From Methanobacteriota archaeon (GTDB lineage: Archaea > JACRDV01): a DNA stretch of 37,159 nt. The position numbers were made by a program, and so were the translations under genes. Of the stretch, positions 1,274 through 34,447 are shown in pieces. The DNA is taken from contig JACRDV010000029.1 in NCBI GenBank assembly GCA_024860865.1, positions 1 to 37,159 on the forward strand, written 5' to 3'. Within the stretch, counting starts at the first letter, position 1. Each line of letters starts with the position of its first letter. The notes under the pieces were generated by a model. It was not told the origin of the DNA. It did no database searches and was given only the letters and a program-made list of their open reading frames with translations.

Positions 1274-1286
1274 TTAACGCTGTTAA
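1274..1286. promoter_or_regulatory. operator-like palindrome TTAACGCTGTTAA (TTAAC-N3-GTTAA), promoter-proximal site for the minus-strand gene 1252<-
   Basis: Perfect 5-bp arms. It is the reverse complement of the site at 1887-1899 and lies 43 bp from its partner at 1317-1329. Confidence 0.65.
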
Positions 1287-1316
1287 AAATAAAAAGGAAC
1301 AATATTATATATAAAG

Positions 1317-1329
1317 TTAACGCCGTTAA
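1317..1329. promoter_or_regulatory. operator-like palindrome TTAACGCCGTTAA abutting a palindromic TATA (TATATATAAAG, 1306-1316)
   Basis: Reverse complement of the site at 1844-1856. It sits between the divergent starts at 1252 (-) and 1343/1358 (+). Confidence 0.65.
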
Positions 1330-1911: not shown

Positions 1912-3570
1912 ATGCCCGATAAAATCTATTTAAAAGGCTTTCCAGAAATCATGAGATTTAAACTAACAGATGATGTTCGCAATGAGATTTTTGCTGAAGC
2001 ATTTGAAAAAATGAGAGAGCAATATTTAGACGTGAGTGATTTATTAACAAATGAATCCTCAAATCACACCTTATATGGCCAATCTATACACGAGTTTGTT
2101 TTTGGAAGATTTGAAGGTAGAATTTTAAAAGTGTTAGAAGAAGCGCCTTCAACCGGCATTGAAATAGTCCAAAAAACAGGACTATCTCCAAATACTTTTC
2201 GCCATAAAATTGCAGAATTGAAAAGAAAGGGAATGATCGAACGAAGAAATGGCAAATATGGATTTATAAAGAATCCATTCGATCTAATTAAGTTCTCAGA
2301 AATAGGAAAAACTGGCAGCTTAGCACCTACACAACGTAGAAAAAAATTTCTTTCTAAAAATGATGTTAAACTTGCGATATATCTGTGGCCAAAATATAGA
2401 AAAGCATGTGCTGAGGTAGGTATCAGTCCTCTAGTCTCAAAATACGCAATAACTTATCATAATATTTTCTGTCTTGCTAATGCTATCAAAAAGTGGAGAA
2501 AAGGAAAAAACGCAACTCCAAAATGGGCCCTGATAGCATTAACAGACCTAACTCAAAAAGCAAATGAATTAAATGAGGAAGGTATAATCCAGAGCTATTG
2601 TTTGCCGGCAAGTACTCCTATAATTCCTTTTTATAATGGAAAATACAAAATTCCAATCGAAGCTGGAGAAGATTTAGACATAATAGCTATCAAACTATTG
2701 GCAAAAGGTTCAGCAAATGGAACAACTTATAACCATAAAAATAAGGAAAAATTTTTTGAAAGACTTCATGATCTTTTTGGATTTTTTGAAACTAAAAGAA
2801 ATAAAGGAGTTCCAACAACAATTCTGGAGATAATTAAAAAGCACTATAATATTCAAAATTTTGATAAAAAAGAAGCTAAAATTCCTTTAATAATAACTGA
2901 AAAATTAGAGAAATTAAAAGGCTACGAAAAGATAAAATATGAACTGAATTTATTAAAGGGAATAACCGAGCTGAGCAGCAACTATAAGGGATATTTTGAT
3001 CTAACATCTCAATCAAAGGATTTTCTAATTGGCGTATCTAAAATCGTGGAAGATTTAGGATTAGGAAAACTAACTATAATGAAAAAATTAAATAGACCTC
3101 ATTATCGATGTATGATTCCTTCTAAGAAAATTAATTTGCTACAACAAAAGGAGTTGCAATTGAAGAAATTATATGAAAACATAGAGCGAATATATCCAGA
3201 CTTTGAAATTTGGAATAAAATACCCTTAAACACAATAATAGAAAGAGCAAGGAGAAAAGACGTATTAAAATTAACACCAATAGAAGTTTTGCAACAATCC
3301 TGCAAAGAAGAGCTTTCCGATTATCTAGGTTTGATTTTAGATAGCATTAAGCGAAACACGAATAAATATATCCATAATTTTCTAGGAAAAAAGATAAACA
3401 CCTTAGAACTCCAAAAAGAAATGACAAATTATTACTGGAATAACAAAAAAATACCAAGCGCTAGAAGCGTAAAAGAATATCTGAATATGATTGAAACTAC
3501 TGGAGCAAGTGTAGATTCTGAAAAAACTTTATCTCGTTTAGGTTCTTCTTCAAATTTATTAAAACTTTAA
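1912..3570 (+). CDS. 552-aa winged-helix DNA-binding protein with a degenerate double-LAGLIDADG-like core; function unknown
   Basis: wHTH at aa ~65-118 (ILKVLEEAPSTGIEIVQKTGLSPNTFRHKIAELKRKGMIERRNGKYGF). Two LAGLIDADG-like segments (DLDIIAIKLLAKGSANGT; YELNLLKGITELSSNYKGYFDLTSQSKDFLIGVSKIVEDLGLG) have the catalytic acidic positions substituted. Very low GC (~30%). Confidence 0.75.
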   Translation: MPDKIYLKGFPEIMRFKLTDDVRNEIFAEAFEKMREQYLDVSDLLTNESSNHTLYGQSIHEFVFGRFEGRILKVLEEAPSTGIEIVQKTGLSPNTFRHKIAELKRKGMIERRNGKYGFIKNPFDLIKFSEIGKTGSLAPTQRRKKFLSKNDVKLAIYLWPKYRKACAEVGISPLVSKYAITYHNIFCLANAIKKWRKGKNATPKWALIALTDLTQKANELNEEGIIQSYCLPASTPIIPFYNGKYKIPIEAGEDLDIIAIKLLAKGSANGTTYNHKNKEKFFERLHDLFGFFETKRNKGVPTTILEIIKKHYNIQNFDKKEAKIPLIITEKLEKLKGYEKIKYELNLLKGITELSSNYKGYFDLTSQSKDFLIGVSKIVEDLGLGKLTIMKKLNRPHYRCMIPSKKINLLQQKELQLKKLYENIERIYPDFEIWNKIPLNTIIERARRKDVLKLTPIEVLQQSCKEELSDYLGLILDSIKRNTNKYIHNFLGKKINTLELQKEMTNYYWNNKKIPSARSVKEYLNMIETTGASVDSEKTLSRLGSSSNLLKL

Positions 3571-3716: not shown

Positions 3717-3947
3717 ATGCCATTTTTAGTAAGGATTAACCATGAAACTTGTAATGGGAACGGAGAATGCTTTAATAGTTGCCCAGCGGGCGTTTTTGAG
3801 GCATCTCACGATGGAAAGTGTTGGGTTGGCGGAGAGAAGTCAATGGAAGGAAATCTTCAGAAAGGCAGTAACGAAGATCTATGTGTAGGGTGTTTGGTTT
3901 GTGTAGAAGTATGCCCAACTAAATCCATCACGGTGACTGAAAAATAA
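3717..3947 (+). CDS. small 4Fe-4S ferredoxin
   Basis: Cx5Cx3CP and CxxCxxCx3CP motifs. GGAGTGA lies 5 nt upstream of the ATG at 3717; the ORF-track start at 3693 is in frame but has no RBS. Confidence 0.8.
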   Translation: MPFLVRINHETCNGNGECFNSCPAGVFEASHDGKCWVGGEKSMEGNLQKGSNEDLCVGCLVCVEVCPTKSITVTEK

Positions 3948-4027: not shown

Positions 4028-5461
4028 CTAACCAGTTTTTCTTCCTACAAGGATTGCTACTACAATTGCACTTATTGCTCCTATTACTATAGCTGCTATT
4101 GACAATGGATATGCTGCCGCAGCCTGTTTAACCCTTGTTTCTATTGCTGCCCCCTCTCTGATTTTTTTAGCCTCATCTTTTATGAAGTTTAGAGATGTTT
4201 TCATTGGCGCCCAGCCATACCAGTGCATATAGTCAGGGTTCATGTGAAAAGCTCCTTGGAAAGTTCTCATTCGGTGCTCTAGAAACATTCCGTAGAGTTC
4301 TTGTTCAATGGGAGATGGAGCTTCGTAAAATGTTAGCAAATCTGGATAGGCATATGCATAGTCCTTTGGCTTGGAAAGCAATCCATCTTTGTATAATTCA
4401 GCAACAGTGGATATGCCTTCAGCCATCAGAGCATCAGCTTGTTTTATGATAGCGTCTGCATTCTCTAGATTTTGCTTAGCATAATTTGCTGAATGGCATT
4501 GACCACAAACATTTAGCATAGCCTCCCTTTGGGCCTGCCATTCTTCTGCCGTTAATCTCGCAACCTTTCCAGCTTTAACCACATCCAGCCTTGCTGTAGG
4601 TTTCCCATCTGGGTCCAATACACCTGTTCCCTTAAGAATTATTGTTCTATAAGACATCCACTCCGAATCAGGTTCTGGTAACCTCACAGCTAAAAAGCCC
4701 CAAGATGTGATTACTTTATGGTTGCCATTTGTCATATGGCAGATTTGGCATGTCGGTGCTGGATATGGATTTTCGCTGAGGTGTTTGTTCCAGTCCCATG
4801 TATCACCTTGCATTGCATAAATTACACCGTGCTTAGAGGTCGAATACATTTCCCATTGAGGGTGATTAAAACCCATGTGGCATGGCAAACATGCTTCAGG
4901 TCTTCTTGCTTCAGCCGTGGAGAATTTATGTCTGGTATGACATGAATCGCAACTACCCATGCCATATCTATACTCTGGTATTCCTGTTTTATTCTTTGAT
5001 CCCATTTTGTGGCATCCTCCACAGCCTTTTTGACCTCCTATTATTGGCTTAGCTTGATGTGTAGTCCCCGGCATTGCATTCATGGCAATCCATGCGAGCG
5101 CGTGCTTACCCTCATTGAATTCTACTACCTTTGGAGCATGGCAAGCATCGCATGTATCTGGCGTCGGCATCTTTGCCTTTGTAAAATCAGCAGCTGAGGT
5201 ATGTTCTGACCCGTGGCAATTTTCACAGCTAATTTGCGATAAACCTCCAGCCATCTTGCTAGCTGTTGGATTCTGTATCCCAGGTGTTCCCATTGCGCCA
5301 CTTTGAAAGGCATCAACAATTTTTGGAGTTATTGTTTTATGGCATGCTATACATGGCGACTCTTCTGCAACTACTTGGGTAGTAATTCCTATTAAGAATA
5401 AAAGTGTCGTTAAAAACGTTACAATTAAAATTTTATTTGAAATTATATTTTCACTTCTCAT
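4028..5461 (-). CDS. octahaem c-type cytochrome, hydroxylamine-oxidoreductase (HAO)-like family, N-terminal signal and C-terminal TM anchor
   Basis: Eight CxxCH motifs (CIACH, CENCH, CDACH, CGGCH, CDSCH, CLPCH, CQICH, CGQCH). HAO-like spacers (CHMGFNHPQWEMYSTSKHG; FHMNPDYMHWYGW). Hydrophobic N- and C-termini. Confidence 0.85.
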   Translation of the reverse strand: MRSENIISNKILIVTFLTTLLFLIGITTQVVAEESPCIACHKTITPKIVDAFQSGAMGTPGIQNPTASKMAGGLSQISCENCHGSEHTSAADFTKAKMPTPDTCDACHAPKVVEFNEGKHALAWIAMNAMPGTTHQAKPIIGGQKGCGGCHKMGSKNKTGIPEYRYGMGSCDSCHTRHKFSTAEARRPEACLPCHMGFNHPQWEMYSTSKHGVIYAMQGDTWDWNKHLSENPYPAPTCQICHMTNGNHKVITSWGFLAVRLPEPDSEWMSYRTIILKGTGVLDPDGKPTARLDVVKAGKVARLTAEEWQAQREAMLNVCGQCHSANYAKQNLENADAIIKQADALMAEGISTVAELYKDGLLSKPKDYAYAYPDLLTFYEAPSPIEQELYGMFLEHRMRTFQGAFHMNPDYMHWYGWAPMKTSLNFIKDEAKKIREGAAIETRVKQAAAAYPLSIAAIVIGAISAIVVAILVGRKTG

Positions 5462-5646: not shown

Positions 5647-7032
5647 ATGTACATAAAAGTACTGTTAGATGAAGATGAAATACCTAAGCAATGGTATAAT
5701 ATTCAGCCTGATCTTCCAAAACCATTACCACCTCCAATTAACCCAGCAACAAAAGAACCGATAGATCCTAAGGCATTAGAAAGAGTATTTGCGAAAGAGC
5801 TCGTAAGGCAAGAAGTAAGTCAGGATAGATGGATAAATATTCCAGAGGAAGTTAGAGATGTCTGGATGGCATGGAGGCCAACTCCATTCTATAGAGCTGT
5901 TAAACTTGAAAAAGCTCTAGGAACACCTGCAAAAATTTACTATAAGTATGAAGGCGTCAGTCCTCCAGGTAGTCATAAACCAAACACAGCAGTAGCACAA
6001 GCCTGGTATAACATGAAAGAAGGCGTTAAAAGGTTAACAACAGAGACAGGGGCTGGCCAATGGGGTTCTGCTTTATCTTTTGGCTGTTCAACTTTTGGTT
6101 TAAAATCAACAGTGTACATGGTAAAAGTTAGCTACCATCAAAAGCCCTATAGGAGAACTATGATGCAAACTTGGGGCGCTGAGGTGTTTCCAAGTCCCAG
6201 CGATAGAACTCAAACTGGGAAGAAAATATTGCAACAAGATCCAGATAATCCAGGTAGTCTTGGAATATCTATAAGCGAAGCTGTTGAGGATGCAGTAACA
6301 CATGAGGACACTAAGTATACATTAGGAAGTGTCGTGAATCATGTTCTTATGCACCAAACGATAATAGGTATAGAAACTGAAAAGCAATTTGAAATTGTAG
6401 ATGATTATCCCGATACGATTATTGGGTGTGTAGGTGGAGGGAGCAGTTTTTCTGGACTATTTTGGCCATTTTATTACGATAAAGTTTCTAAGAAAGCTCC
6501 GAAAGAAGCGGAATTTATTGCAGTCGAACCAACGGCATGCCCTAGCTTGACCAGAGGCAGTTATACGTATGATCACGGGGATACTGCTAGGTTTATCCCT
6601 CTAGTTAAAATGCATACTCTTGGCCACGATTTTGTTCCTGCCCCAATACATGCTGGAGGTCTAAGATATCATGGAGATGCTCCAACGCTATGCTTGCTAG
6701 TCAATGAAAAAAGGGTAAAAGCAAGGGCATACAATCAAGTTGAAGTTTTTGAAGCTGCCGTACTGTTTGCAAAGACCGAAGGAATAATACCCGCTCCTGA
6801 ACCTGCGCACGCTATAAAGGCAGTAATTGATGAAGCAATCAAGTGCAAAGAAACAGGTGAGGAAAAAACAATACTTTTCCTTTTGTGCGGGCATGGATAC
6901 TTTGACATGAAAGCTTACGAGGATTTCTTTGAAGGCAAGTTACTTCCTTATGAATATCCCGAAGAAAAAATTAAGGAATCATTAAGAAGGTTAAAAGAGC
7001 TCTATCCTTGGGCAGAAAAACTTCCATACTAA
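5647..7032 (+). CDS. trpB: TrpB2-type tryptophan synthase beta-like PLP enzyme
   Basis: N-terminal ..[14 protein letters not shown].. and ..[25 protein letters not shown].. are typical of TrpB2. AGGAGG lies 7 nt upstream of the ATG at 5647 (ORF-track start 5629). Confidence 0.9.
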
Positions 7033-7096
7033 CCTTTTTTCTTTTTTATTAAATGTAGTAAATAATATAAGATTGCTCAATAGAGAATTCCTTCTT

Positions 7097-8302
7097 ATGG
7101 GAGATTTAAAAAGATTTACTTCTTCTATCCAAGCTGCAATTAAAAAACTCCAAACTTGGCCAATTAGAGAACTAACTCTATGCCATCACGACGAAGCTGA
7201 TGGGTGCACATCGGCAGCTATAACTAAAACTGCTCTCGAGAGGAGGGGCTATAAAGTAAATTTTCTTTGTATAGAGAAGTTATTTCCTCAAGTGCTTGAG
7301 AAACTTCATACGCAAAAAGGGGCTTTAATTTTTTATACAGACATTGGAGCTTTTCACTCGAAACTAATCTCTGATTTAAATAAAGGCAAAAATCTTACAA
7401 TAATTTTAGACCACCATGACACTGAGCCTTCAACTGACTCGATGGTTTTCAATTTAGATCCTGAATTGTTTGGATTTAGTGGCGAAAAAGATGCTAGCAG
7501 CGCGACTACTTGTTATCTATTTGCTAAAGAATTAGATCCAAAAAACATCGATTTAGCTCATCTTGCAATTATTGGTTCAGCTGAAATACCAGGAGATGTT
7601 ACAGGTCTTAACAAAATTCCACTTGAAGATGCACAAAAACAAGATTTAGTTGAGGTTAGTGGTACGAAGGGAAAGCAAAGGTATAAAGTTAAATTACCAA
7701 GTGGAAAAATTTCTAGCACTGAAGCTTCCAGCAAATTGTCTGCGCTTGCATCGGTTGGATATTATGAAAACGGTCCAAAACTTGCGATTAAAGCTTGCCT
7801 AGATGGGTTTGATGAAACTATTGAGAAAAAAATTTTAGAGCTCCAAGAAAAACGAAAAACTGTTAGTAAGAAAATGCTGGCAATTCTATATAAAACCAAA
7901 CTTAAAGAAACTGATCATATTCAATGGTTCCATGCTAAGGACATTTTTAAATCTATGGGTGTTAAAGTTATTGGAACCTTTTGCTCTATGTTGCGTTTTC
8001 AAACCAAATTGATTAAACTGGAGAAATACATTGTCGGGTTTATGAATATGGACCCAGTTATTCCTAGGTATGGAAAATTAGAACAACCAATGACTAAAGT
8101 TTCAATGAGAGTTCCGATTCAACTTGAAAAGTTAATTAATGCGAAGAAAATGCCCGGTGCTTCATATCTCTTGCCTGAAGCTTCAAAGTTAGTAGGTGGA
8201 TTTGGTGACGGTCATAGTTTAGCTTCTTCTTCAATTATTCCAAAAGGGCAGGAAGAAAAATTGATTGATTATATGGAATCGCTATTTAAAAATTTTTCAT
8301 AG
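7097..8302 (+). CDS. DHH/DHHA1 family phosphoesterase (RecJ-like)
   Basis: HHDEADGCTSAA (DHH motifs I-II), ILDHHD (motif III), C-terminal GGFGDGHSLAS (DHHA1 GGGH-like). The ORF-track TTG at 7073 is less likely than the ATG at 7097. Confidence 0.8.
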   Translation: MGDLKRFTSSIQAAIKKLQTWPIRELTLCHHDEADGCTSAAITKTALERRGYKVNFLCIEKLFPQVLEKLHTQKGALIFYTDIGAFHSKLISDLNKGKNLTIILDHHDTEPSTDSMVFNLDPELFGFSGEKDASSATTCYLFAKELDPKNIDLAHLAIIGSAEIPGDVTGLNKIPLEDAQKQDLVEVSGTKGKQRYKVKLPSGKISSTEASSKLSALASVGYYENGPKLAIKACLDGFDETIEKKILELQEKRKTVSKKMLAILYKTKLKETDHIQWFHAKDIFKSMGVKVIGTFCSMLRFQTKLIKLEKYIVGFMNMDPVIPRYGKLEQPMTKVSMRVPIQLEKLINAKKMPGASYLLPEASKLVGGFGDGHSLASSSIIPKGQEEKLIDYMESLFKNFS

Positions 8303-8306
8303 TATG

Positions 8307-8479
8307 AAAAAGAGTTGGCAGTTGCTTTTCTTACTCGAACGATTGGTATCATGTAAACATGAAATTGCCAATTAGATCATTTGTTGGTAAGATTTAGTGA
8401 CCTAATTTGGGTAAGGGGCTTGTGAGTTTAAGATTTTTGAAGTTTGGGAGTTATAAGAACAACTGCCAACTTTTGTTAA
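8307..8479 (-). ncRNA. candidate ~170-nt structured non-coding RNA with termini closed by an 18-bp stem (alternative: MITE-like element)
   Basis: 12-bp perfect inverted repeat AGTTGGCAGTTG (8313-8324) / CAACTGCCAACT (8460-8471), extended by TTCTTA (8328-8333) / TAAGAA (8454-8459). Internal hairpin ATTGG..CATG-TAAA-CATG..CCAAT at 8342-8372. No ORF longer than 3 codons from an ATG. On the minus strand a TATA plus operator cassette lies upstream (8501-8523) and a U5 run (8307-8311) follows the closing stem. Confidence 0.5.
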
Positions 8480-8510
8480 AATAATTTAAGGATGTACCAA
8501 GTATAAAAAG

Positions 8511-8523
8511 TTAACGGCGTTAA
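8511..8523. promoter_or_regulatory. fifth TTAAC-N3-GTTAA palindrome (TTAACGGCGTTAA) with adjacent TATA, same cassette geometry as at 1844-1899
   Basis: The minus strand reads TTAACGCCGTTAA-CTTTTTATAC-21 nt-TTAACAAAAGTTGG. Compare TTAACGGCGTTAA-CTTTATATAC-20 nt-TTAACAGCGTTAA at 1844-1899. The AAATTATTTT(T)AAC block is conserved. Confidence 0.6.
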
Positions 8524-8546
8524 AATTAGTTAAAAACTCTATTAAA

Positions 8547-9968
8547 CTAGCCTAAAAGAGCGGCACGGAAACCTGAAATGCAGTCTTTAGCTGATTGGAA
8601 AAGCAGGTGTTTTATTTTTGTAGGAGTTTTCAGTTTTTCTAACCTGCCAATCCTAAAATAGATCGGTGGATGTGGATCCCATGTTATCCAACTTTGGATC
8701 CTATAAGTTGGTGATCTTTCAAATTGAAGTTTTCGAAATCCAATTTTTCGTAGAGCTTCAGCCAAAACCTGCGGCTGCTCTATTTTAACTGCAGATTCAA
8801 GGTCAGCCCTTGCCTCAAAGAATTTAGCGATGAAGAAAACTATTCCCATGGCAACAAAGAGATATAATAATGGAAAGAATACAACAATTGGCCAAAACAC
8901 ATATAAGCGAAGCAAATATTCAGATGCCGTTAATACAAAGAGATTAAAGGGATCTCTTCCTTTAAGATGGCTAAACTCATGCCCTAAAACGTTAAATATC
9001 TCATATTCTTCCAATTGAACTAGCAATCCTGTAGTAATAAGTATTGTCCCATGACTCGGGCTAGGACCGGAAGCAGCTGCGTTAGGTAGCATTGTATTTG
9101 AAATGACTATTTTGGGCACCGGAAGGTTGAATCTTTCGGCAACCTTTCGCACTAGTTCATAGACATTTATTGTTTTTGTTGAGATGTTCGCTGGTATGCA
9201 TTTGATTCCATATTTAGAAAATACTTCTTCGGCAGTTTGACAGCTGAGTTCTTTACCAACAGCTAGAGTTTTTTCATAGATCTCTTTCTTCATTTCAATA
9301 ACGAGGTCTTTCCCATACTTTTGTTGAAATTCTTTATATTCTTCTACTGGCAAATGATATTGTAATAAGTGAACATTTGGATTTTTAGGTGTTACAGACC
9401 AGTTGCCTAATTTTTTTATGATTTTGTCTGAAAAAAGAACTGTCACAAACTGAAAAGCTACTATAACAATTGGCGCATAAGAACCCAAAAAATAAAACAC
9501 TAAAATACTTGCAGCAATGAAGATTATAAAAAAGAAAAGCATACTATCTGTTAAAATCCTTTCAAGAGCACTTCCACGTTTTGATGGAATTTTTTCAGGT
9601 ATAATTTCTTCGCCTTCGAGCCAGGCAAAGTAAAGAGTAGTTTTTCTAACTTTCTCTTCAAATAGCTGAACAACTATGATTAAGTCTTCTTTCAGTTGAT
9701 CTATGGCTGTTTCAGGCACATTTTCGCTTGGAGACATTTTAACTTGAATTGGTTTTACAGCTTTAATCTCAACATTAATGTACCATTTTTCTTCTGACTC
9801 AAATGCTGTGAAACAGAGGAGATGCTCATTATCTGCAGTTAATTTTTTTATGCTTGCAAAACGTTCTTTGTTAGGGAGCAGATAATACTCATTTATGAAC
9901 TTTAGCAGATCGTCAAGATGTGCTAGCGTGACTTCTGTATCTATTGTAAAACTCTCAGTTTTTCTCAT
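8547..9968 (-). CDS. peptidase M48 (HtpX-like) membrane zinc metalloprotease with extra N-terminal soluble domain
   Basis: LGHEFSHLKGRD (HExxH plus downstream acidic residue, M48 style) and multiple TM helices flanking the catalytic region. Confidence 0.8.
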   Translation of the reverse strand: MRKTESFTIDTEVTLAHLDDLLKFINEYYLLPNKERFASIKKLTADNEHLLCFTAFESEEKWYINVEIKAVKPIQVKMSPSENVPETAIDQLKEDLIIVVQLFEEKVRKTTLYFAWLEGEEIIPEKIPSKRGSALERILTDSMLFFFIIFIAASILVFYFLGSYAPIVIVAFQFVTVLFSDKIIKKLGNWSVTPKNPNVHLLQYHLPVEEYKEFQQKYGKDLVIEMKKEIYEKTLAVGKELSCQTAEEVFSKYGIKCIPANISTKTINVYELVRKVAERFNLPVPKIVISNTMLPNAAASGPSPSHGTILITTGLLVQLEEYEIFNVLGHEFSHLKGRDPFNLFVLTASEYLLRLYVFWPIVVFFPLLYLFVAMGIVFFIAKFFEARADLESAVKIEQPQVLAEALRKIGFRKLQFERSPTYRIQSWITWDPHPPIYFRIGRLEKLKTPTKIKHLLFQSAKDCISGFRAALLG

Positions 9969-13035: not shown

Positions 13036-14292
13036 ATGTTTTTAAAAATGATCCAGAACTTATCTGTGAGATTTTTTGCTACATCTATTGTATATTTCTT
13101 AATTACTGTTACGTTTGGAATACTGATTGCACTAGGAAAAATAGGCTTTTTTGACAATCCAATTGCTGCGCATTCCCATATTGCTCTCATCGGTTGGATC
13201 ACAATTACAATAATGGGAGCTGAGTATCAAATAGTTCCAACGTTATTAGGTAAGGAACTTTACAACAGAAGGTTAGCCGAAATTCAGTTTTGGCTTATAA
13301 ATATTGGGACAATAGGCATGTTTTTGGGATTTTTATCGGGAAATGGTTTATTAATATTTATATTCGGTGTAGTGGTGGCAATAGCCGCATATCTTTTTGC
13401 TTTCATTATTTTTAAAATGTTAGAAAAGAAAAAAATGATTTTAACGATGAAATTTTTTGTTGTAGCTATTCTATATGTGCTTGTAACGGTTACACTTGGA
13501 TTGCTCATAGCTACAAATGCCAAATATCTAATTTACTATGCTTTTCCTGAAGTTAAGATTCTTGCAACACAAACTCATCTTGCATTAGTTGGTTGGGTTT
13601 CTATGACTATTATGGGCGCAATGTATCAAATGTTGCCCATGCTTTCATTAAAAAAACTTTATAGCGAGAAGTTGGGAGAAGCTCAGTTCTGGGTTGCAAA
13701 TGTTGGAATCATTGGAATGACTTTAGGTTTTTTAACTGGAGAGATACGGCTGGTAGCTATATTTGGCACAATTACTGCAATAGCTTCTTACTTGTTCGCC
13801 TATAATATGTTTCAAACACTAAGAACTAAATCTGAAACAAAAATGAAAGTGGATATTTCTGTTAAATTTTTTGTTAATGCTGTCATTTACTTTTTAATAG
13901 TAGTTACTTTCGGAGTACTGATAGCTACTGATGCGACAAATTCGATTTTTAAATTAATACCAGGAGCTAAAATTATTGCTTCTCACGCCCATCTTGGGTT
14001 GATAGGTTGGGTTTCAATAACTATAGTCGGAGGCATGTATCATCTAGTGCCGATGCTTGTATGGATGGAGCGATACGGTCCAAAGTTAGGAATAGAAAAA
14101 GTACCTACAATTAAGGAGCTCTTCAGCGAAAAGTTAGCAAATGTTCAGCTCTTACTTTTTAACGTTGGATTAGTTGGAATGTTTTTAGGTTTTATGATGG
14201 CAGAGATGAGACTAGCAGCGATATCTGGAGCTATCATTGCCATAGCCTCATACATATTTGCTTACGATATGTTAAAAACGATTAAAGGATAA
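13036..14292 (+). CDS. 12-TM membrane protein built from three tandem 4-TM repeats, each with a haem-copper-oxidase subunit I helix-X-like motif
   Basis: Repeats begin at aa 10, 137 and 275 (SVRFF../TMKFF../SVKFF..). Motifs: HSHIALIGWITITIMGAEYQIVP, QTHLALVGWVSMTIMGAMYQMLP, HAHLGLIGWVSITIVGGMYHLVP. Compare bovine COX1 [23 protein letters not shown], which has identical HxH, IMG and P spacing. Confidence 0.85.
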   Translation: MFLKMIQNLSVRFFATSIVYFLITVTFGILIALGKIGFFDNPIAAHSHIALIGWITITIMGAEYQIVPTLLGKELYNRRLAEIQFWLINIGTIGMFLGFLSGNGLLIFIFGVVVAIAAYLFAFIIFKMLEKKKMILTMKFFVVAILYVLVTVTLGLLIATNAKYLIYYAFPEVKILATQTHLALVGWVSMTIMGAMYQMLPMLSLKKLYSEKLGEAQFWVANVGIIGMTLGFLTGEIRLVAIFGTITAIASYLFAYNMFQTLRTKSETKMKVDISVKFFVNAVIYFLIVVTFGVLIATDATNSIFKLIPGAKIIASHAHLGLIGWVSITIVGGMYHLVPMLVWMERYGPKLGIEKVPTIKELFSEKLANVQLLLFNVGLVGMFLGFMMAEMRLAAISGAIIAIASYIFAYDMLKTIKG

Positions 14293-30762: not shown

Positions 30763-31653
30763 TTAGGAGTGCTCAATTATCTCTAAAAACGCATCAAAAA
30801 TAGGAGTATCTGATGTTATAGAATAGAAGTCAGCTCCTACATCATCGCAAACTTTTTTTATTGCGCCAGCATGCTCATCTAGTATTTTTTTATAATTAGC
30901 TTTAAAAGCAGGGCTAATATAAGTACGTCTCATTTCAGAAGTTTCGGAATCGTATAACTTTGTATCACCTTCTACTCCTTCTAAGTTTTTTTCTTTAGGA
31001 TCTAAAACTTGGATTAACACTAAATCATGGGATCCTCTCGCGATCTTGTATATGCCAGTATCTAGAGAAGACAAAGGCTCTAAAAAGTCTGAAATTATTA
31101 TTACAAGAGACCTTGATCTAATTATCTTGCTATATTGATCTGCGCACACATTTAACCTTGTTTTTCCCTCAAGAGATGTGCTATTTAACAGCTCCACCGC
31201 ATCTAAAAAGTGTCTTTTACCTCTTCTTGGTTGCATTATGTCCTTTAACTCATCTGAGTATGTTGAGAGCGCAAACCTTTCATTTTCATTAGTCACTAAG
31301 TATGCAAACCCAGCACCGATCATAGCGGCATAATCAAATTTTTTTATCTCTCCAAACTCCATGCTTTTGCTGCAATCAACTAAAATATGGGTTGTGAGAT
31401 TCTTCTCTTCTTCAAATCTGCGAATGTATAACTTCTCTGTTCTGGAATAAACCTTCCAAGCTATTGATTTTATATCATCTCCAGGAAAATATTCTCTATA
31501 ATCGACAGTATCGATGCCTTTTCCTTCCTTTATAGATACTCTTGCGCCAGCGTATATGCTTATTACTCTTTTTTTGACCATAAAACTGAAGCGATCTAAC
31601 TCCTTACAGAAATCTATGTCTATCAATTTATCACAATTTTTGAATGATTTCAT
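30763..31653 (-). CDS. DUF58 protein (vWA-like, MoxR partner)
   Basis: YREYFPGDDIKSIAWKVYSRTEKLYIRRFEEE is the DUF58 signature. Overlaps the MoxR 3' end by 23 nt. Confidence 0.88.
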   Translation of the reverse strand: MKSFKNCDKLIDIDFCKELDRFSFMVKKRVISIYAGARVSIKEGKGIDTVDYREYFPGDDIKSIAWKVYSRTEKLYIRRFEEEKNLTTHILVDCSKSMEFGEIKKFDYAAMIGAGFAYLVTNENERFALSTYSDELKDIMQPRRGKRHFLDAVELLNSTSLEGKTRLNVCADQYSKIIRSRSLVIIISDFLEPLSSLDTGIYKIARGSHDLVLIQVLDPKEKNLEGVEGDTKLYDSETSEMRRTYISPAFKANYKKILDEHAGAIKKVCDDVGADFYSITSDTPIFDAFLEIIEHS

Positions 31654-34447
31654 TTACGACAGCATCTTGAGTGATGCCTTTTCTCTCCGCATCAAAAGTT
31701 AAAATTATTCTATGCCTTAGAATAGGATATGCCATAGCATTGATGTCCTCTTTGCTCACAAAATTTTTCCCTCGTATTAGTGCTCTAGCCTTTGAAGTTA
31801 ACACTAGTCCAATCGAAGCTCGTGGTGAAGCGCCATACTCTATTTTAGTAGCAAAATCTTTAGACCTAGTTGAAGTAACGATGTCTAATGCATGCTTTTT
31901 TATATCTTCAGCTATTGGCATCTGGCGCGTTAAGCGTTGGAGTGATAGTAATGTTTCTTTATCTATGATCTTCTGTATCGCTGGCGCAGAATGGCTGGCA
32001 TACATCTCAACGATTTTATCTTCTTCCTCTTCAGTGGGATAATCAACAAGCACTTTTAACAAAAAGCGATCTAATTGGGCTTCTGGTAATGGATAAGTGT
32101 TATGATTTATACCACAAGCGCCGAAACCAGCTAAGTAATTCTGCAATCCGGGCACAACAAGTCCAAAAACAAGCCCAGAGTAGGGCTTATACTCTATCTT
32201 ATGCACTTTGTCGTAATATATGTCTTCAGTAAGAAGCCCTTGTAAGTAAGCTAATATTTTCTCCGCTTTACTAAGCCTTTGTTTGAATTTTTCTTTAATA
32301 AAATTTTTAAGCTCTATATGACTTGTGCCATTTGTATATAGCTGCCACACAGTGTGTTTAGAAAAATTAGCTTCTCTAGAAATTTCAGTAATTGACAGCC
32401 CACAAAGAATCGCTAATCTATGCGGATCAGTTTGAGCAAGAGTTTCAACATCTAATGTTCTTCTAAAATCAATCTCTTTTCTGAGATCTTCCAACATTAC
32501 CTTATAAAAATATTCAGATATCCTTTCTCTACCTTCTTTAATTGAATTATAACTGCCATACCAAGTTCTTGAAAGGAATTTCTTAGTTCCATATGAGCGG
32601 AAATTTATTAATCCAAGGAGTTTAACTAGTTCAAGTACAAGTTGCCTTGGAATAGGTACAGCTCTAAAGTTAGAATACCTGCTTGACTGTTTACTTAAAT
32701 CAATTTTAAACTGTTCTATCCAACCAATTTTTTTGAGAAATGCATAATAGTCTCGACCCTGAATTTTTAATCTAAAAATCCTTTTTTGATCTTTTATCCA
32801 TGTTAAAATTCCTTCTTTAATAAGCATATGGATTATTACATTAACACTATCTTTATTGACTTGAGAAAAAGTAATTCGATTATCTCTATTGCTAGATTCT
32901 AAAGAAATAAATGTTCGTAAAAATTCTCTTCTTAGATTTGCAGGCAGAGAAAGCATCCATGGTGGAATACCTTTTCCCGGAGCAGTATCAAATCTCAATT
33001 TAAGGTATTCTACCAGCGGTTTGGACCTAATTATAACGGTCCTGCCATCAGGCTCAGATATAACTTCACTAATGTTAATGCCTAACTTGTTAACAGTTAA
33101 TTCAATAAATCTATCTAAAGCTTTGGGATAATTTTTCTGATATGCTGCAACATAATTCTCTGAAATACTGCCGTCTGAGAGCAAGAATGCTATCCAGAAA
33201 ATAAAATCTTCATCAACGTTAAATCTCTTCATTCTAGTGATTTTATAACTTTCAATAAAGTCATATTCGCATTTTGGATGATTTTCTTTAAAGTAGTTTG
33301 TAAGCAAACAATTAATTCGCTCATTTTTTCCGCCTCTTAAGAATTTTATTAACTTCCAATATTCTGATCGCTCTAGTCCTAATTTCTTTAAGAGTTCAAT
33401 TTTGCTAAAACCTAAAGCTATTCTGAGCTTATCAAAGTCAACACCAGTCAAATTGTAAAAATTTGTAAAATTTTTTGTTTTATCTCTTAATTCTTTTATA
33501 TCCTCTAATTTAACAACTATAAACTTTGTGCATAACCTGTTAAGTGCCTCTTCATGATCCATTAACTCAAATTTTTCATCGCCATCGGGAAGCTTTGCAG
33601 GGCATACTAGATAGTCATTGAGAGTGAGTTCTTCTGCTTTTTTCCAAATTATTCGCCCAAAACGGTTCACTAAGAACGGGTGATTTTTAGTAACGGCAAT
33701 AGTTCTACCGGTTCTTGTTGTTACATAAACAATTTCATCATGGTATGGAAGTGTATAGAGCATACAATCTTGTTTTTCTAGGAGGCCGTTTTGATTCAGT
33801 GTAAAGGTCCAAAGCTCTGGGAGATGATAAAGAACCATTTCTCCATTCTTTACTTGAAGTGCCTTTTTGGCTTTAATTAAAAGCTGTGAACCATTTGCTA
33901 TACTGCCATTAACAAAAACCGGTTGTTCCAAAGCTAAACTTCCTTCCATCTCAATCGGATTTTGCGTCGCAAGCACGAAAAATGGTCTGTCAAGTTGATA
34001 CGTTTCATTTCCTGCTGTAACTTGTTTTTCTTGCATTGCTTCAAGCAGAGCACTTTGAGCTTTGGGCGTAGCTCTGTTGATTTCATCTGCTAATACAATA
34101 TTTGCAAAAACTGGCCCCCTCTCAAACCTAAACACTTTTTTACCGCTCTGCTCTTCTATCACATAAGTGCCGGTTATATCAGAGGGCATTATGTCAGGAG
34201 TACACTGGATTCTGCTGAATTTTAAATCCATTATCTTGGCTAGTGTGCTGATCATCAGAGTTTTTCCTAAACCTGGGTAGCCTTCTAATAATGCATGGCC
34301 ATCGCAAAGCAAAGCTATTATTAAGTGTTCTATAGTATTTTTCTGCCCAATAATGCCCTTTCCTATTTCATTAAATACTGTCTCAAATGTTCCACCAATT
34401 GTTTTGTATACTTTCTCATCCAAAACCTCAGTACCCTCAGTACCCAT
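31631..34447 (-). CDS. MoxR-family AAA+ ATPase interrupted by a large intein (exteins 169 + 155 aa)
   Basis: Walker A GYPGLGKT, Walker B LADEINRA. ATQNPIEMEG / TYPLPEAQLDRF would be contiguous in ordinary MoxR proteins. Confidence 0.92.
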   Translation of the reverse strand: MGTEGTEVLDEKVYKTIGGTFETVFNEIGKGIIGQKNTIEHLIIALLCDGHALLEGYPGLGKTLMISTLAKIMDLKFSRIQCTPDIMPSDITGTYVIEEQSGKKVFRFERGPVFANIVLADEINRATPKAQSALLEAMQEKQVTAGNETYQLDRPFFVLATQNPIEMEGSLALEQPVFVNGSIANGSQLLIKAKKALQVKNGEMVLYHLPELWTFTLNQNGLLEKQDCMLYTLPYHDEIVYVTTRTGRTIAVTKNHPFLVNRFGRIIWKKAEELTLNDYLVCPAKLPDGDEKFELMDHEEALNRLCTKFIVVKLEDIKELRDKTKNFTNFYNLTGVDFDKLRIALGFSKIELLKKLGLERSEYWKLIKFLRGGKNERINCLLTNYFKENHPKCEYDFIESYKITRMKRFNVDEDFIFWIAFLLSDGSISENYVAAYQKNYPKALDRFIELTVNKLGINISEVISEPDGRTVIIRSKPLVEYLKLRFDTAPGKGIPPWMLSLPANLRREFLRTFISLESSNRDNRITFSQVNKDSVNVIIHMLIKEGILTWIKDQKRIFRLKIQGRDYYAFLKKIGWIEQFKIDLSKQSSRYSNFRAVPIPRQLVLELVKLLGLINFRSYGTKKFLSRTWYGSYNSIKEGRERISEYFYKVMLEDLRKEIDFRRTLDVETLAQTDPHRLAILCGLSITEISREANFSKHTVWQLYTNGTSHIELKNFIKEKFKQRLSKAEKILAYLQGLLTEDIYYDKVHKIEYKPYSGLVFGLVVPGLQNYLAGFGACGINHNTYPLPEAQLDRFLLKVLVDYPTEEEEDKIVEMYASHSAPAIQKIIDKETLLSLQRLTRQMPIAEDIKKHALDIVTSTRSKDFATKIEYGASPRASIGLVLTSKARALIRGKNFVSKEDINAMAYPILRHRIILTFDAERKGITQDAVVNEIIQKL
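32099..33940 (-). mobile_element. 614-aa LAGLIDADG-type intein inserted in MoxR (Ser1 ... His-Asn / Thr+1)
   Basis: Starts SLALEQPVFV (block A) and has TKNHPFLV (block B). LAGLIDADG motifs FIFWIAFLLSDGSI and EFLRTFISLESS. Ends VFGLVVPGLQNYLAGFGACGINHN, then T+1. GC is visibly lower than in the exteins. Confidence 0.85.

Follow-up and report, generated by a model that had tools for sequence, protein, structure and literature searches.

What is made, if anything, from a gap between two convergent genes is the question raised by this locus. The window, meaning the whole 37,159-nt stretch of DNA that was analysed (JACRDV010000029.1, a chromosomal contig of an uncultivated archaeon, assembly GCA_024860865.1), holds such a gap of 244 nt, from 8303 to 8546, between a RecJ-like DHH gene and an M48 peptidase gene. 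The closest relatives of the window proteins are found in Bathyarchaeota/Bathyarchaeia; at NCBI, the contig is labelled 'Euryarchaeota archaeon'. The strain is also present in run SRR12113407. An initial annotation had placed in the gap a structured non-coding RNA (ncRNA) of about 170 nt, transcribed from the minus strand behind a third copy of an operator cassette and co-regulated with the gene of a HExxH protein. The stem closing this RNA element can be drawn as a motif of the bulge-helix-bulge (BHB) type. Tentatively, an operator-controlled transcript is proposed, which the splicing endonuclease would cut at the motif into a 124-nt circular, G-poor RNA and a 46-nt hairpin; on comparison of the sequences, this reading falls somewhat short of being probable.

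Bulge-Helix-Bulge Geometry of the Stem

The hBHBh′ motif is defined by a central helix of 4 bp (H), two 3-nt bulges and outer helices (h and h′) of at least two Watson-Crick pairs each (PMC7714728, PMC6379350). The paired ends of the window element, and those of its homologue in a second contig, L118, have this layout (Table 1). The 4-bp central helix is CUUA/UAAG in the window and CUCA/UGAG in L118. Two 3-nt bulges lie on opposite strands, each 3′ of its own H strand, with the polarity of the introns at position 37/38 of tRNAs. The outer helices count 14 bp (h, with one G·U pair) and 3 bp (h′) in the window, and 8 bp and 5 bp (CUCCA/UGGAG) in L118. The polarity is canonical on the cassette-driven strand only and is reversed on the complement. 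Geometry and polarity show both predicted stems to be canonical hBHBh′ motifs. Folded as mini-hairpins, they have energies of -24.1 (window) and -19.9 kcal/mol (L118). Bulge migration makes other registers accessible, in which the central helix counts 6 bp (window) or 5 bp (L118); the 4-bp register is the only one that the two species share.

The positions of the cuts are predicted from tRNA-Ser(GCU). Its genes in two contigs (L119, 11138-11242, minus strand; L127, 6933-7035, minus strand) adjoin the gene of the regulator discussed below and carry a 16-nt intron at 37/38. There, H is made by nucleotides 32-35 pairing with nucleotides 11-14 of the intron, and the bulges consist of nucleotides 36, 37 and i1, with the cut after 37, and by i15, i16 and 38, with the cut after i16. 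Because of this layout, each bulge is placed 3′ of H and the cut after the second bulge nucleotide. The intron motif of these two genes comprises h, H and both bulges, with no clear inner helix (relaxed hBH).

The initial annotation had described an 18-bp stem with a 3-nt bulge. The stem is indeed non-random, and what had been missed is its canonical BHB nature. The 12-nt perfect arm (8471-8460, pairing with 8324-8313) and the U5 run 3′ of the stem are present as it described them. Seen as an inverted repeat, the locus has arms of 30 nt that are 80% complementary and 111 nt apart. The minus-strand fold has a minimum free energy (MFE) of -37.8 kcal/mol (z = -5.5) and, among 1234 sliding 180-nt windows corrected for composition, the region comes first for the plus strand and second for the minus strand. 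As the stem is a BHB motif, the likely product shifts from a linear 170-nt small RNA (sRNA) to an excised, probably circular RNA of 124 nt.

A descriptor scan of 1.57 Mb, counting both strands, returned 1836 matches to a loose BHB. The longest flanking helices among them belong to the window and to L001, a strain that shares 5250 nt with the window. The signature UAA...CUC occurs, among the scanned sequence, only in the window, L001 and L118.

A Homologue Upstream of a Metallopeptidase Gene

A homologue of the regulator (P0242, 66% identical) led to L118, a related Bathyarchaeial contig in the European Nucleotide Archive (ENA). Its minus strand carries, in order, the orthologue of the PALP gene of the window (78% identical), a cassette (2346 to 2293), about 147 nt without an open reading frame (ORF) and the orthologue of the HExxH gene of the window (59% identical). 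The 147-nt leader resembles the window RNA at both ends, on the 5′ side (GTTGTTCTTATAACTCCCAAACTTCAA vs. GGTCGTCTCATAACTCCACTCAAATTTCAA) as well as on the 3′ side (TTCGAGTAAGAAAAGCAACTG vs. ATGGAGTGAGAAAACGACCAT), and folds into the same closing structure. The stem pairs were counted by script; MAFFT did not hold both stem arms in register. Fifteen pairs are common to the two species: nine are identical, six differ in both bases with no loss of pairing, and no pair is disrupted. All six bulge nucleotides are identical, and the central helix differs by one compensatory pair.

The enclosed RNA behaves differently from the stem. From the CUC to the 3′ arm of the inner helix it measures 114 nt in the window and 89 nt in L118, and it is unalignable past the first ~15 nt. 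Both interiors contain 7.9% G (in the window, 8337-8450 is made up of A41 C31 G9 U33), a content of at most 7.9% being reached in just 1.6% of the 114-nt windows of the contig. The fold scores of the interior are inconsistent between species and strands, and its fold is not conserved; the nested hairpin that had been noted at 8342-8372 does not recur in L118 either.

A structured minus-strand RNA and its co-regulation with the HExxH gene, both part of the first proposal, are supported, since the L118 homologue stands behind the same cassette on the same strand and its stem is kept by compensatory changes. A free-standing gene is not what L118 shows: there the element is the 5′ leader of the HExxH mRNA, lacking a terminator after the stem and running into the ORF. 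An independent ncRNA may therefore hold only for the lineage of the window, or the window locus may be a relic. An AlphaFold model of the HExxH protein was too low in confidence to be used (predicted local distance difference test score, pLDDT, of 42).

That the gap holds no ORF beyond two or three codons, as had been stated, is not strictly true. A 27-amino-acid ORF with an ATG start lies at 8352 to 8269 on the minus strand and a 36-amino-acid ORF with a TTG start at 8265-8375 on the plus strand; neither is kept in the homologous L118 element. A small-ORF reading was dropped, as the 27-amino-acid ORF is not conserved and the predicted L118 circle has no ORF. A stretch after the stem (ATGAAAAATTTT) that looked like a relic of the HExxH start codon was likewise discarded, because on the opposite strand it is where the DHH ORF has its conserved 3′ end.

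Known RNA families do not account for the element. The initial annotation could match it to none, and this agrees with the Rfam 15 covariance-model scan, which gave no gathering-level match in the whole window and only chance-level ones (E above 2) in 8150-8700 and in L118 2100-2400, searched to an E of 10. ARAGORN found no tRNA in the window in its standard search, nor, with introns allowed, in L001 or L118. A permuted structured RNA was judged unlikely because of the 8% G, permuted forms not being among those scanned in Rfam. The layout of a cis-regulatory leader or riboswitch is seen only in the L118 copy: downstream of the window stem come two T5 runs and then DHH antisense sequence. No second copy of the RNA body was found in the 37-kb window, if the part with the palindrome and TATA box is left aside.

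Table 1. Positions of the element, its control sequences and the genes mentioned in the window.
Feature	Position	Strand	Remark
Outer helix h, 5′ strand (AGUUGGCAGUUGUU)	8458-8471	minus	pairs with 8313-8326
Outer helix h, 3′ strand (AGCAACUGCCAACU)	8313-8326	minus	pairs with 8458-8471
Central 4-bp helix H, 5′ strand CUUA	8454-8457	minus	pairs with UAAG 8330-8333
Central helix H, 3′ strand UAAG	8330-8333	minus	
5′ bulge UAA	8451-8453	minus	identical in L118; predicted cut between 8452 and 8451
3′ bulge AAA	8327-8329	minus	identical in L118; predicted cut between 8328 and 8327
Inner helix h′, 5′ strand CUC	8448-8450	minus	pairs with GAG 8334-8336
Inner helix h′, 3′ strand GAG	8334-8336	minus	
G-poor interior	8337-8447	minus	only first ~15 nt (CAAAYUUCAA) resemble L118
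U5 run just after the stem (C, then U5)	8307-8311	minus	likely archaeal terminator; second T5 at 8292-8288
Distal operator palindrome TTAACGCCGTTAA	8511-8523	minus	exact palindrome; overlaps BRE position just upstream of TATA box
TATA box TTTTTATA	8502-8509	minus	position relative to palindrome as in cassettes 1329 to 1274 and 1844 to 1899
AAATTATTTTAAC	8487-8475	minus	sequence
Proximal operator-like site TTAAC-AAAA-GTTGG (TTAACAAAAGTTGG)	8466-8479	minus	spans predicted transcription start (about 8477)
Cassette 1	1274-1329		two palindromes 43 nt apart; between HExxH gene (734-1252, minus) and regulator gene (1343-1735, plus)
Cassette 2	1844-1899	plus	upstream of 552-aa winged-helix protein gene (1912-3570)
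Candidate repressor, 130-aa XRE-type HTH protein with C-terminal cysteines (XRE-HTH/Cys4)	1343-1735	plus	weak HTH_3 match
HExxH protein gene	734-1252	minus	L118 orthologue (59% identical) with homologous RNA element in 5′ leader
RecJ-like DHH gene	7073-8302	plus	left neighbour of 244-nt gap
M48 peptidase gene	8547-9968	minus	right neighbour of 244-nt gap

The Operator Cassette and Its Regulator

The palindrome TTAACNNNGTTAA is present without mismatch at five window sites (1274, 1317, 1844, 1887 and 8511). With one mismatch allowed, 13 matches are found where 3.0 are expected, a number reached in none of 100 shuffles. As previously annotated, a third operator/TATA cassette is located on the minus strand and points into the gap, with all its elements in place. 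Its parts (8523 to 8466) follow the order of cassettes 1 and 2. The spacing had also been given as the same, which is not exact, as the two operators are 44 nt apart in cassette 3 vs. 43 in the others. The proximal palindrome is less degenerate than claimed: 8 of the 10 half-site bases are matched at 8466-8479 with a 4-nt spacer, and a 4-nt spacer is also found in the proximal sites TTAACAATCGTTAA of the Methanocellales-type loci L105 and L106. The block AAATTATTTT(T)AAC, described as conserved, is indeed common to the cassette at 1844-1899, and only loosely to the one at 1274-1329 (TTTTTATTTTTAAC). In archaea, the centre of the TATA box usually lies about 26 nt from the transcription start; the start near 8477 was placed by this distance.

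The operator at 8511-8523 is identical to the sites upstream of the regulator's own gene and lies directly upstream of TTTTTATA. Its arrangement, with a palindrome over the B recognition element (BRE) and TATA box or over the start, recurs in the other two cassettes of the window, as well as upstream of the homologues of the regulator in L083, L105, L106, L110, L112 and L118-L127. Upstream of the regulator gene, TTAACGNCGTTAA occurs one to three times in every contig fetched via regulator homologues, and in Methanocellales-type, Nanoarchaeia and Woesearchaeota loci the operator stands just upstream of the homologues of the 130-amino-acid ORF. An exact-pattern scan for palindrome plus TATA, limited to one genome per species, gave 34 loci, 13 of them archaeal. 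Since the palindrome is conserved across genomes, the operator cassette of the initial annotation is supported as a real, conserved operator/promoter module, at which repressor binding is predicted.

The obvious candidate repressor for TTAACGNCGTTAA would be the XRE-type helix-turn-helix (HTH) protein encoded at 1343-1735. Its match to HTH_3, weak in the window, is clear for the L106 homologue. Neither this protein nor the HExxH protein has sequence relatives in the PDB, and the literature search found no paper on the regulator or its operator. Members of the regulator family are about 125-135 amino acids long, have TTAACGNCGTTAA as operator and range from Bathyarchaeia to Methanocellales, Archaeoglobi and Nanoarchaeia (L083, L105, L106, L110-L113, L118-L127). 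The XRE-HTH/Cys4 regulator and its operator apparently form an undescribed pair that is widespread in archaea. The genes adjoining the operators encode SufC/SufBD, a sulfite-reductase-like protein, a PALP enzyme, ThiI and an aminotransferase of class V, which hints at a putative cysteine/sulfur/Fe-S regulon.

Some further features were seen around the regulator genes. In three Methanocellales-type contigs (L105, 99-183; L106, 7881-7974; L083, about 4950-4983), the distal palindrome abuts the 5′ end of a divergent tRNA-Cys gene; a TTAACGNCGTTAA-type operator may also control the tRNA-Cys gene in those contigs. In L118, about 55 nt (the cassette and the first regulator codons) are present twice, at 1-60 and 1176-1235, flanking a 1.1-kb toxin-antitoxin-like pair (UPF0175/DUF3368). 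Either an insertion that brought a long duplication or an effect of assembly where the contig ends could account for it. Inside the regulator ORF of three contigs (L122, about 3809-3905; L123, about 1618-1714; L124, about 6633-6729) lies an 8-bp inverted repeat with 73 nt between its arms, the pairing of which is kept despite sequence change (GGGTTATG...CATAACCC vs. GGGTGGCT...GGTCACCC).

Proposed Transcript and Its Processing

On the proposed reading, the minus strand from 8523 to 8307 would be a small transcription unit in the regulon of the 130-amino-acid XRE-HTH/Cys4 repressor. The repressor would occupy TTAACGCCGTTAA, covering the BRE/TATA region, as well as a weaker site at +1. Upon its release, transcription would start near 8477 and stop at the U5 run (8311-8307), giving a non-coding transcript of about 170 nt. 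The ends of this RNA are predicted to pair as the 14-bp helix running into the hBHBh′ motif, with H formed by CUUA/UAAG, bulges UAA and AAA, and h′ formed by CUC/GAG. The tRNA-splicing endonuclease EndA would cut after the second nucleotide of each bulge, and an RtcB-type ligase would join the ends. The expected products are a circular, G-poor and largely unpaired RNA of 124 nt (8451 to 8328) and a 46-nt hairpin in which the joined flanks close a 7-nt loop, CUUAUAA. Their predicted junctions are GAGTAAGAA followed by ACTCCCAAAC in the circle (8328 joined to 8451) and GTTGTTCTTATA followed by AAGCAACTGCC in the joined flanks (8452 joined to 8327). In L118, the module would be an intron-like insert in the mRNA leader of the HExxH metallopeptidase: removal of 101 nt would shorten the leader from ~150 to ~50 nt.

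The motif and the ~15 nt beside it are conserved while the interior is not. For this reason, the processing itself, or a generic unstructured C/A/U-rich circle serving as a platform for pairing or protein binding, is more likely to be what matters than a specific folded RNA. The loop of the joined flanks, CUUAUAA in the window and CUCAUAA in L118, reads like an anticodon loop, CUCAUAA being typical of tRNA-Met/Ile2(CAU). This likeness may point to an origin from the anticodon arm of an intron-bearing tRNA, or to mimicry.

Evidence against Processing and Alternative Explanations

Several observations weigh against the proposed excision. The BHB motif was recognised only after the stem had been seen, and loose BHB geometry is common by chance, as the 1836 matches in 1.57 Mb illustrate. 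In the window, the inner helix has just 3 bp and the BHB conformer is not the MFE structure; it lies 1.7 kcal/mol above it (0.3 in L118). A U6 run in the L118 interior could end transcription before the 3′ arm. With two independent sequences of the RNA element (window and L118), the sample is too small for a statistical covariation test. The relatives contributed no further copies: the element was absent, as were the DHH neighbour and the palindrome, near M48 homologues in 80 metagenome loci (54-69% identity); it was not found downstream of the closest DHH relative (L117, 81% identical), where the DNA is unrelated; and seven more contigs with regulator homologues (L119-L127) have operators, no HExxH gene and no element. 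When the predicted circle was scanned for pairing with 30 gene starts of the window, it did no better than shuffles, the method being too permissive. Furthermore, the complement strand is more stable in both species (-53.9 kcal/mol for 8303-8485 of the window and -42.4 kcal/mol for 2165-2296 of L118, both plus strand). Finally, 4 of the 11 single-nucleotide polymorphisms (SNPs) between the window and L001 fall in these 244 of 5250 nt (Fisher p = 0.001); therefore, the locus as a whole is under no visibly stronger constraint than the flanking genes.

The gap could instead yield what the initial annotation had in mind, a stable linear sRNA of ~170 nt whose stem guards the ends from exonucleases and whose C-rich, G-poor interior acts in trans by pairing or by binding a protein, with no part for the endonuclease. 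Promoter, stem and terminator serve this explanation equally well, the G-poor interior is common to both species, and the MFE fold of the window differs from the BHB conformer. It leaves unexplained, however, why the 3-nt bulges and the 4-bp spacing are best conserved while the interior varies; the L118 element reads through into the HExxH ORF with no terminator after its stem, and the pairing scan gave no target signal. We regard it as unlikely. The same holds for a non-functional relic, which we also rate as improbable. It supposes an ancestral order of cassette, leader and HExxH gene as in L118, from which a rearrangement, possibly between cassettes, moved the HExxH gene behind cassette 1 and left an orphan leader, perhaps still transcribed or processed. 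In favour of such a history, and at the same time a weak point of the proposed reading, the HExxH gene of the window stands directly behind cassette 1 without the leader element that its L118 orthologue has. Synteny with the PALP gene persists in inverted orientation, the intergenic region shows a raised density of SNPs, degeneracy is seen in the proximal operator, and positions 1-60 of L118 hold a duplicate of the cassette. A decaying leader would hardly be expected to have a longer and cleaner outer helix in the window (14 bp; 17 in L001) than in L118 (8 bp), or a sole stem-adjacent SNP that improves pairing. The TATA box, the distal operator, the BHB core and the U5 terminator are also intact, and the body of the transcribed strand is free of T-runs.

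The strand is a further matter, as fold z-scores do not settle it, whether for the whole element or for the interior. A functional plus strand would give a G+U-rich structured RNA or an element of the 3′ untranslated region (UTR) downstream of the DHH gene, the cassette being unrelated or acting as a terminator region. The plus-strand fold (-53.9 kcal/mol, z = -5.3) ranks first in the window, the complement of the L118 element (-42.4, z = -5.2) outdoes the cassette-driven strand (-24.8, z = -3.6), and a TATA-like TATTTAAAAA is located ~26 nt upstream of 8313. The extra stability of the complement comes from G·U pairs, the minus-strand RNA being G-poor, and the extra helices differ between the species, with an interior z of 0.0 in the window vs. 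-2.4 in L118. The plus strand has T4 runs at 8326 and 8471 and a T5 run at 8434 inside its body; on the minus strand, no run of at least four T precedes the U5 after the stem. The three SNPs of the element relative to L001 point the same way: the one at 8472 lengthens the minus-strand outer helix to 17 bp, the others fall in unpaired minus-strand positions, and two break plus-strand pairs. Nothing similar lies downstream of the closest DHH relative, the L118 element is not beside any DHH gene, and in both species the conserved cassette is upstream of the minus-strand element. The minus strand is likely the functional one, and a plus-strand RNA is quite improbable. Even less credit can be given to a miniature inverted-repeat transposable element (MITE) or another small mobile element with terminal inverted repeats between the convergent genes, in spite of the imperfect 30-nt repeats around 111 nt and the absence of the element at corresponding places in relatives. 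Of the checks that had been called for, the one for target-site duplications went against it. The element is single in the 37-kb window and has no further copy in ~0.8 Mb of fetched loci or in viral contigs, in which the stem pattern had no match and the cassette one. No target-site duplication is present, the flanks 8303-8312 and 8472-8485 being mutually complementary rather than direct repeats, and no transposase gene was found in the window. The only other copy, in L118, is at an orthologous, syntenic position behind the same promoter, with arms that differ yet pair, unlike the termini of a MITE.

Comparison with Known Substrates

To our knowledge, very few natural substrates of the archaeal splicing endonuclease exist outside tRNA and rRNA: the cbf5 mRNA intron, the HVO_1309 leader and a permuted signal recognition particle (SRP) RNA. 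BHB motifs in the processing stems of 16S and 23S rRNA give rise to circular pre-rRNAs. Like the element described here, those stems combine a long flanking helix with an embedded BHB, and the enclosed RNA is excised and circularised, as is predicted for the window element. What they enclose is large, conserved and structured, in contrast to the ~120 nt of G-poor, unstructured and unconserved RNA in the window.

The tRNA introns at 37/38 and the tRNA intronic circular RNAs (tricRNAs) share the geometry and polarity of the motif. The predicted 7-nt loop of the joined flanks, too, is like a tRNA anticodon loop (C32 U33 ... A37 A38, with CAU in L118). Acceptor, D and T arms are absent from the window element.

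The nearest precedent is found in Haloferax volcanii, where a 46-nt BHB intron in the 5′ UTR of HVO_1309 (M24 peptidase) undergoes excision and circularisation and is cleaved by the endonuclease in vitro (Schwarz et al. 2020, PMC7714728). Like the L118 copy, it is an hBHBh′ motif outside tRNA and rRNA in the mRNA leader of a peptidase, and the interior of its excised, circularised piece has no known function. The 46 nt of this intron are experimentally shown, whereas the 101-124 nt of L118 and the window are predicted, and there is no sequence relation. Moreover, only the window copy has its own operator-controlled promoter and a terminator, with no downstream gene. Crenarchaeota offer a second case, the intron in the cbf5 pre-mRNA (Watanabe et al. 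2002; Yokobori et al. 2009, both cited after PMC7714728). As far as the citing paper presents it, this intron is likewise BHB-bounded, lies in a protein-gene transcript of TACK archaea and is removed by the tRNA-splicing endonuclease; it differs in lying within the coding sequence, where its removal is needed for the reading frame, rather than in a leader or a stand-alone RNA. In Thermoproteus, the transcript of a permuted SRP RNA gene, a stand-alone ncRNA, is BHB-processed and circularised (Plagens et al. 2015, PMC4731332). In that case, a known structured RNA is restored by circularisation; the predicted window circle, with its 8% G, is unlikely to be a permuted structured RNA. With the L118 copy, the 'leader intron' kind would gain a new member. 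The window copy, predicted to have a regulated promoter and a terminator of its own and no gene to serve, is a variant for which no description was found in the searched literature.

Other Features of the Window

The gene content of the window includes shikimate-pathway genes, MoxR/VWA genes and multi-haem cytochromes. Positions 100-400, 419-493 and about 523-696 cover an extremely AT-rich stretch (14-16% G+C) followed by a 24-amino-acid hydrophobic ORF and a 57-amino-acid ORF with a CxxCH haem-binding motif. The gene of a MoxR-type AAA ATPase (31631-34447, minus strand) is split by an intein that includes a LAGLIDADG domain (Pfam Intein_splicing and LAGLIDADG_3 within AAA_3/AAA_lid_2). A multi-haem cytochrome c (4028-5461, minus strand) and a COX1-like subunit of a haem-copper oxidase (13036-14292, plus strand) constitute unusual respiratory equipment for Bathyarchaeia.

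Significance

If the proposed processing is true, the element would be a further substrate of the splicing endonuclease, from an uncultivated lineage of TACK archaea, with one copy as a leader intron and the other free-standing under operator control, and a concrete example of a regulated circular RNA in archaea. A stronger version can be conceived, although we consider it doubtful: a dedicated repressor-controlled gene whose sole product would be a BHB-excised, G-poor and unstructured circle of 124 nt, within the putative cysteine/sulfur/Fe-S regulon of Bathyarchaeia. This gene would have descended from the metallopeptidase leader intron or given rise to it, and its joined flanks would mimic a tRNA-Met/Ile-like anticodon stem-loop. 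Archaea would then have in it their first regulated stand-alone gene for a circular RNA other than a permuted form or a precursor of a known RNA. As for the regulator-operator pair, it is located beside Suf, sulfite-reductase, cysteine-synthase-like and tRNA-Cys genes, so that a sulfur/Fe-S regulon can be predicted for Bathyarchaeia directly from sequence.

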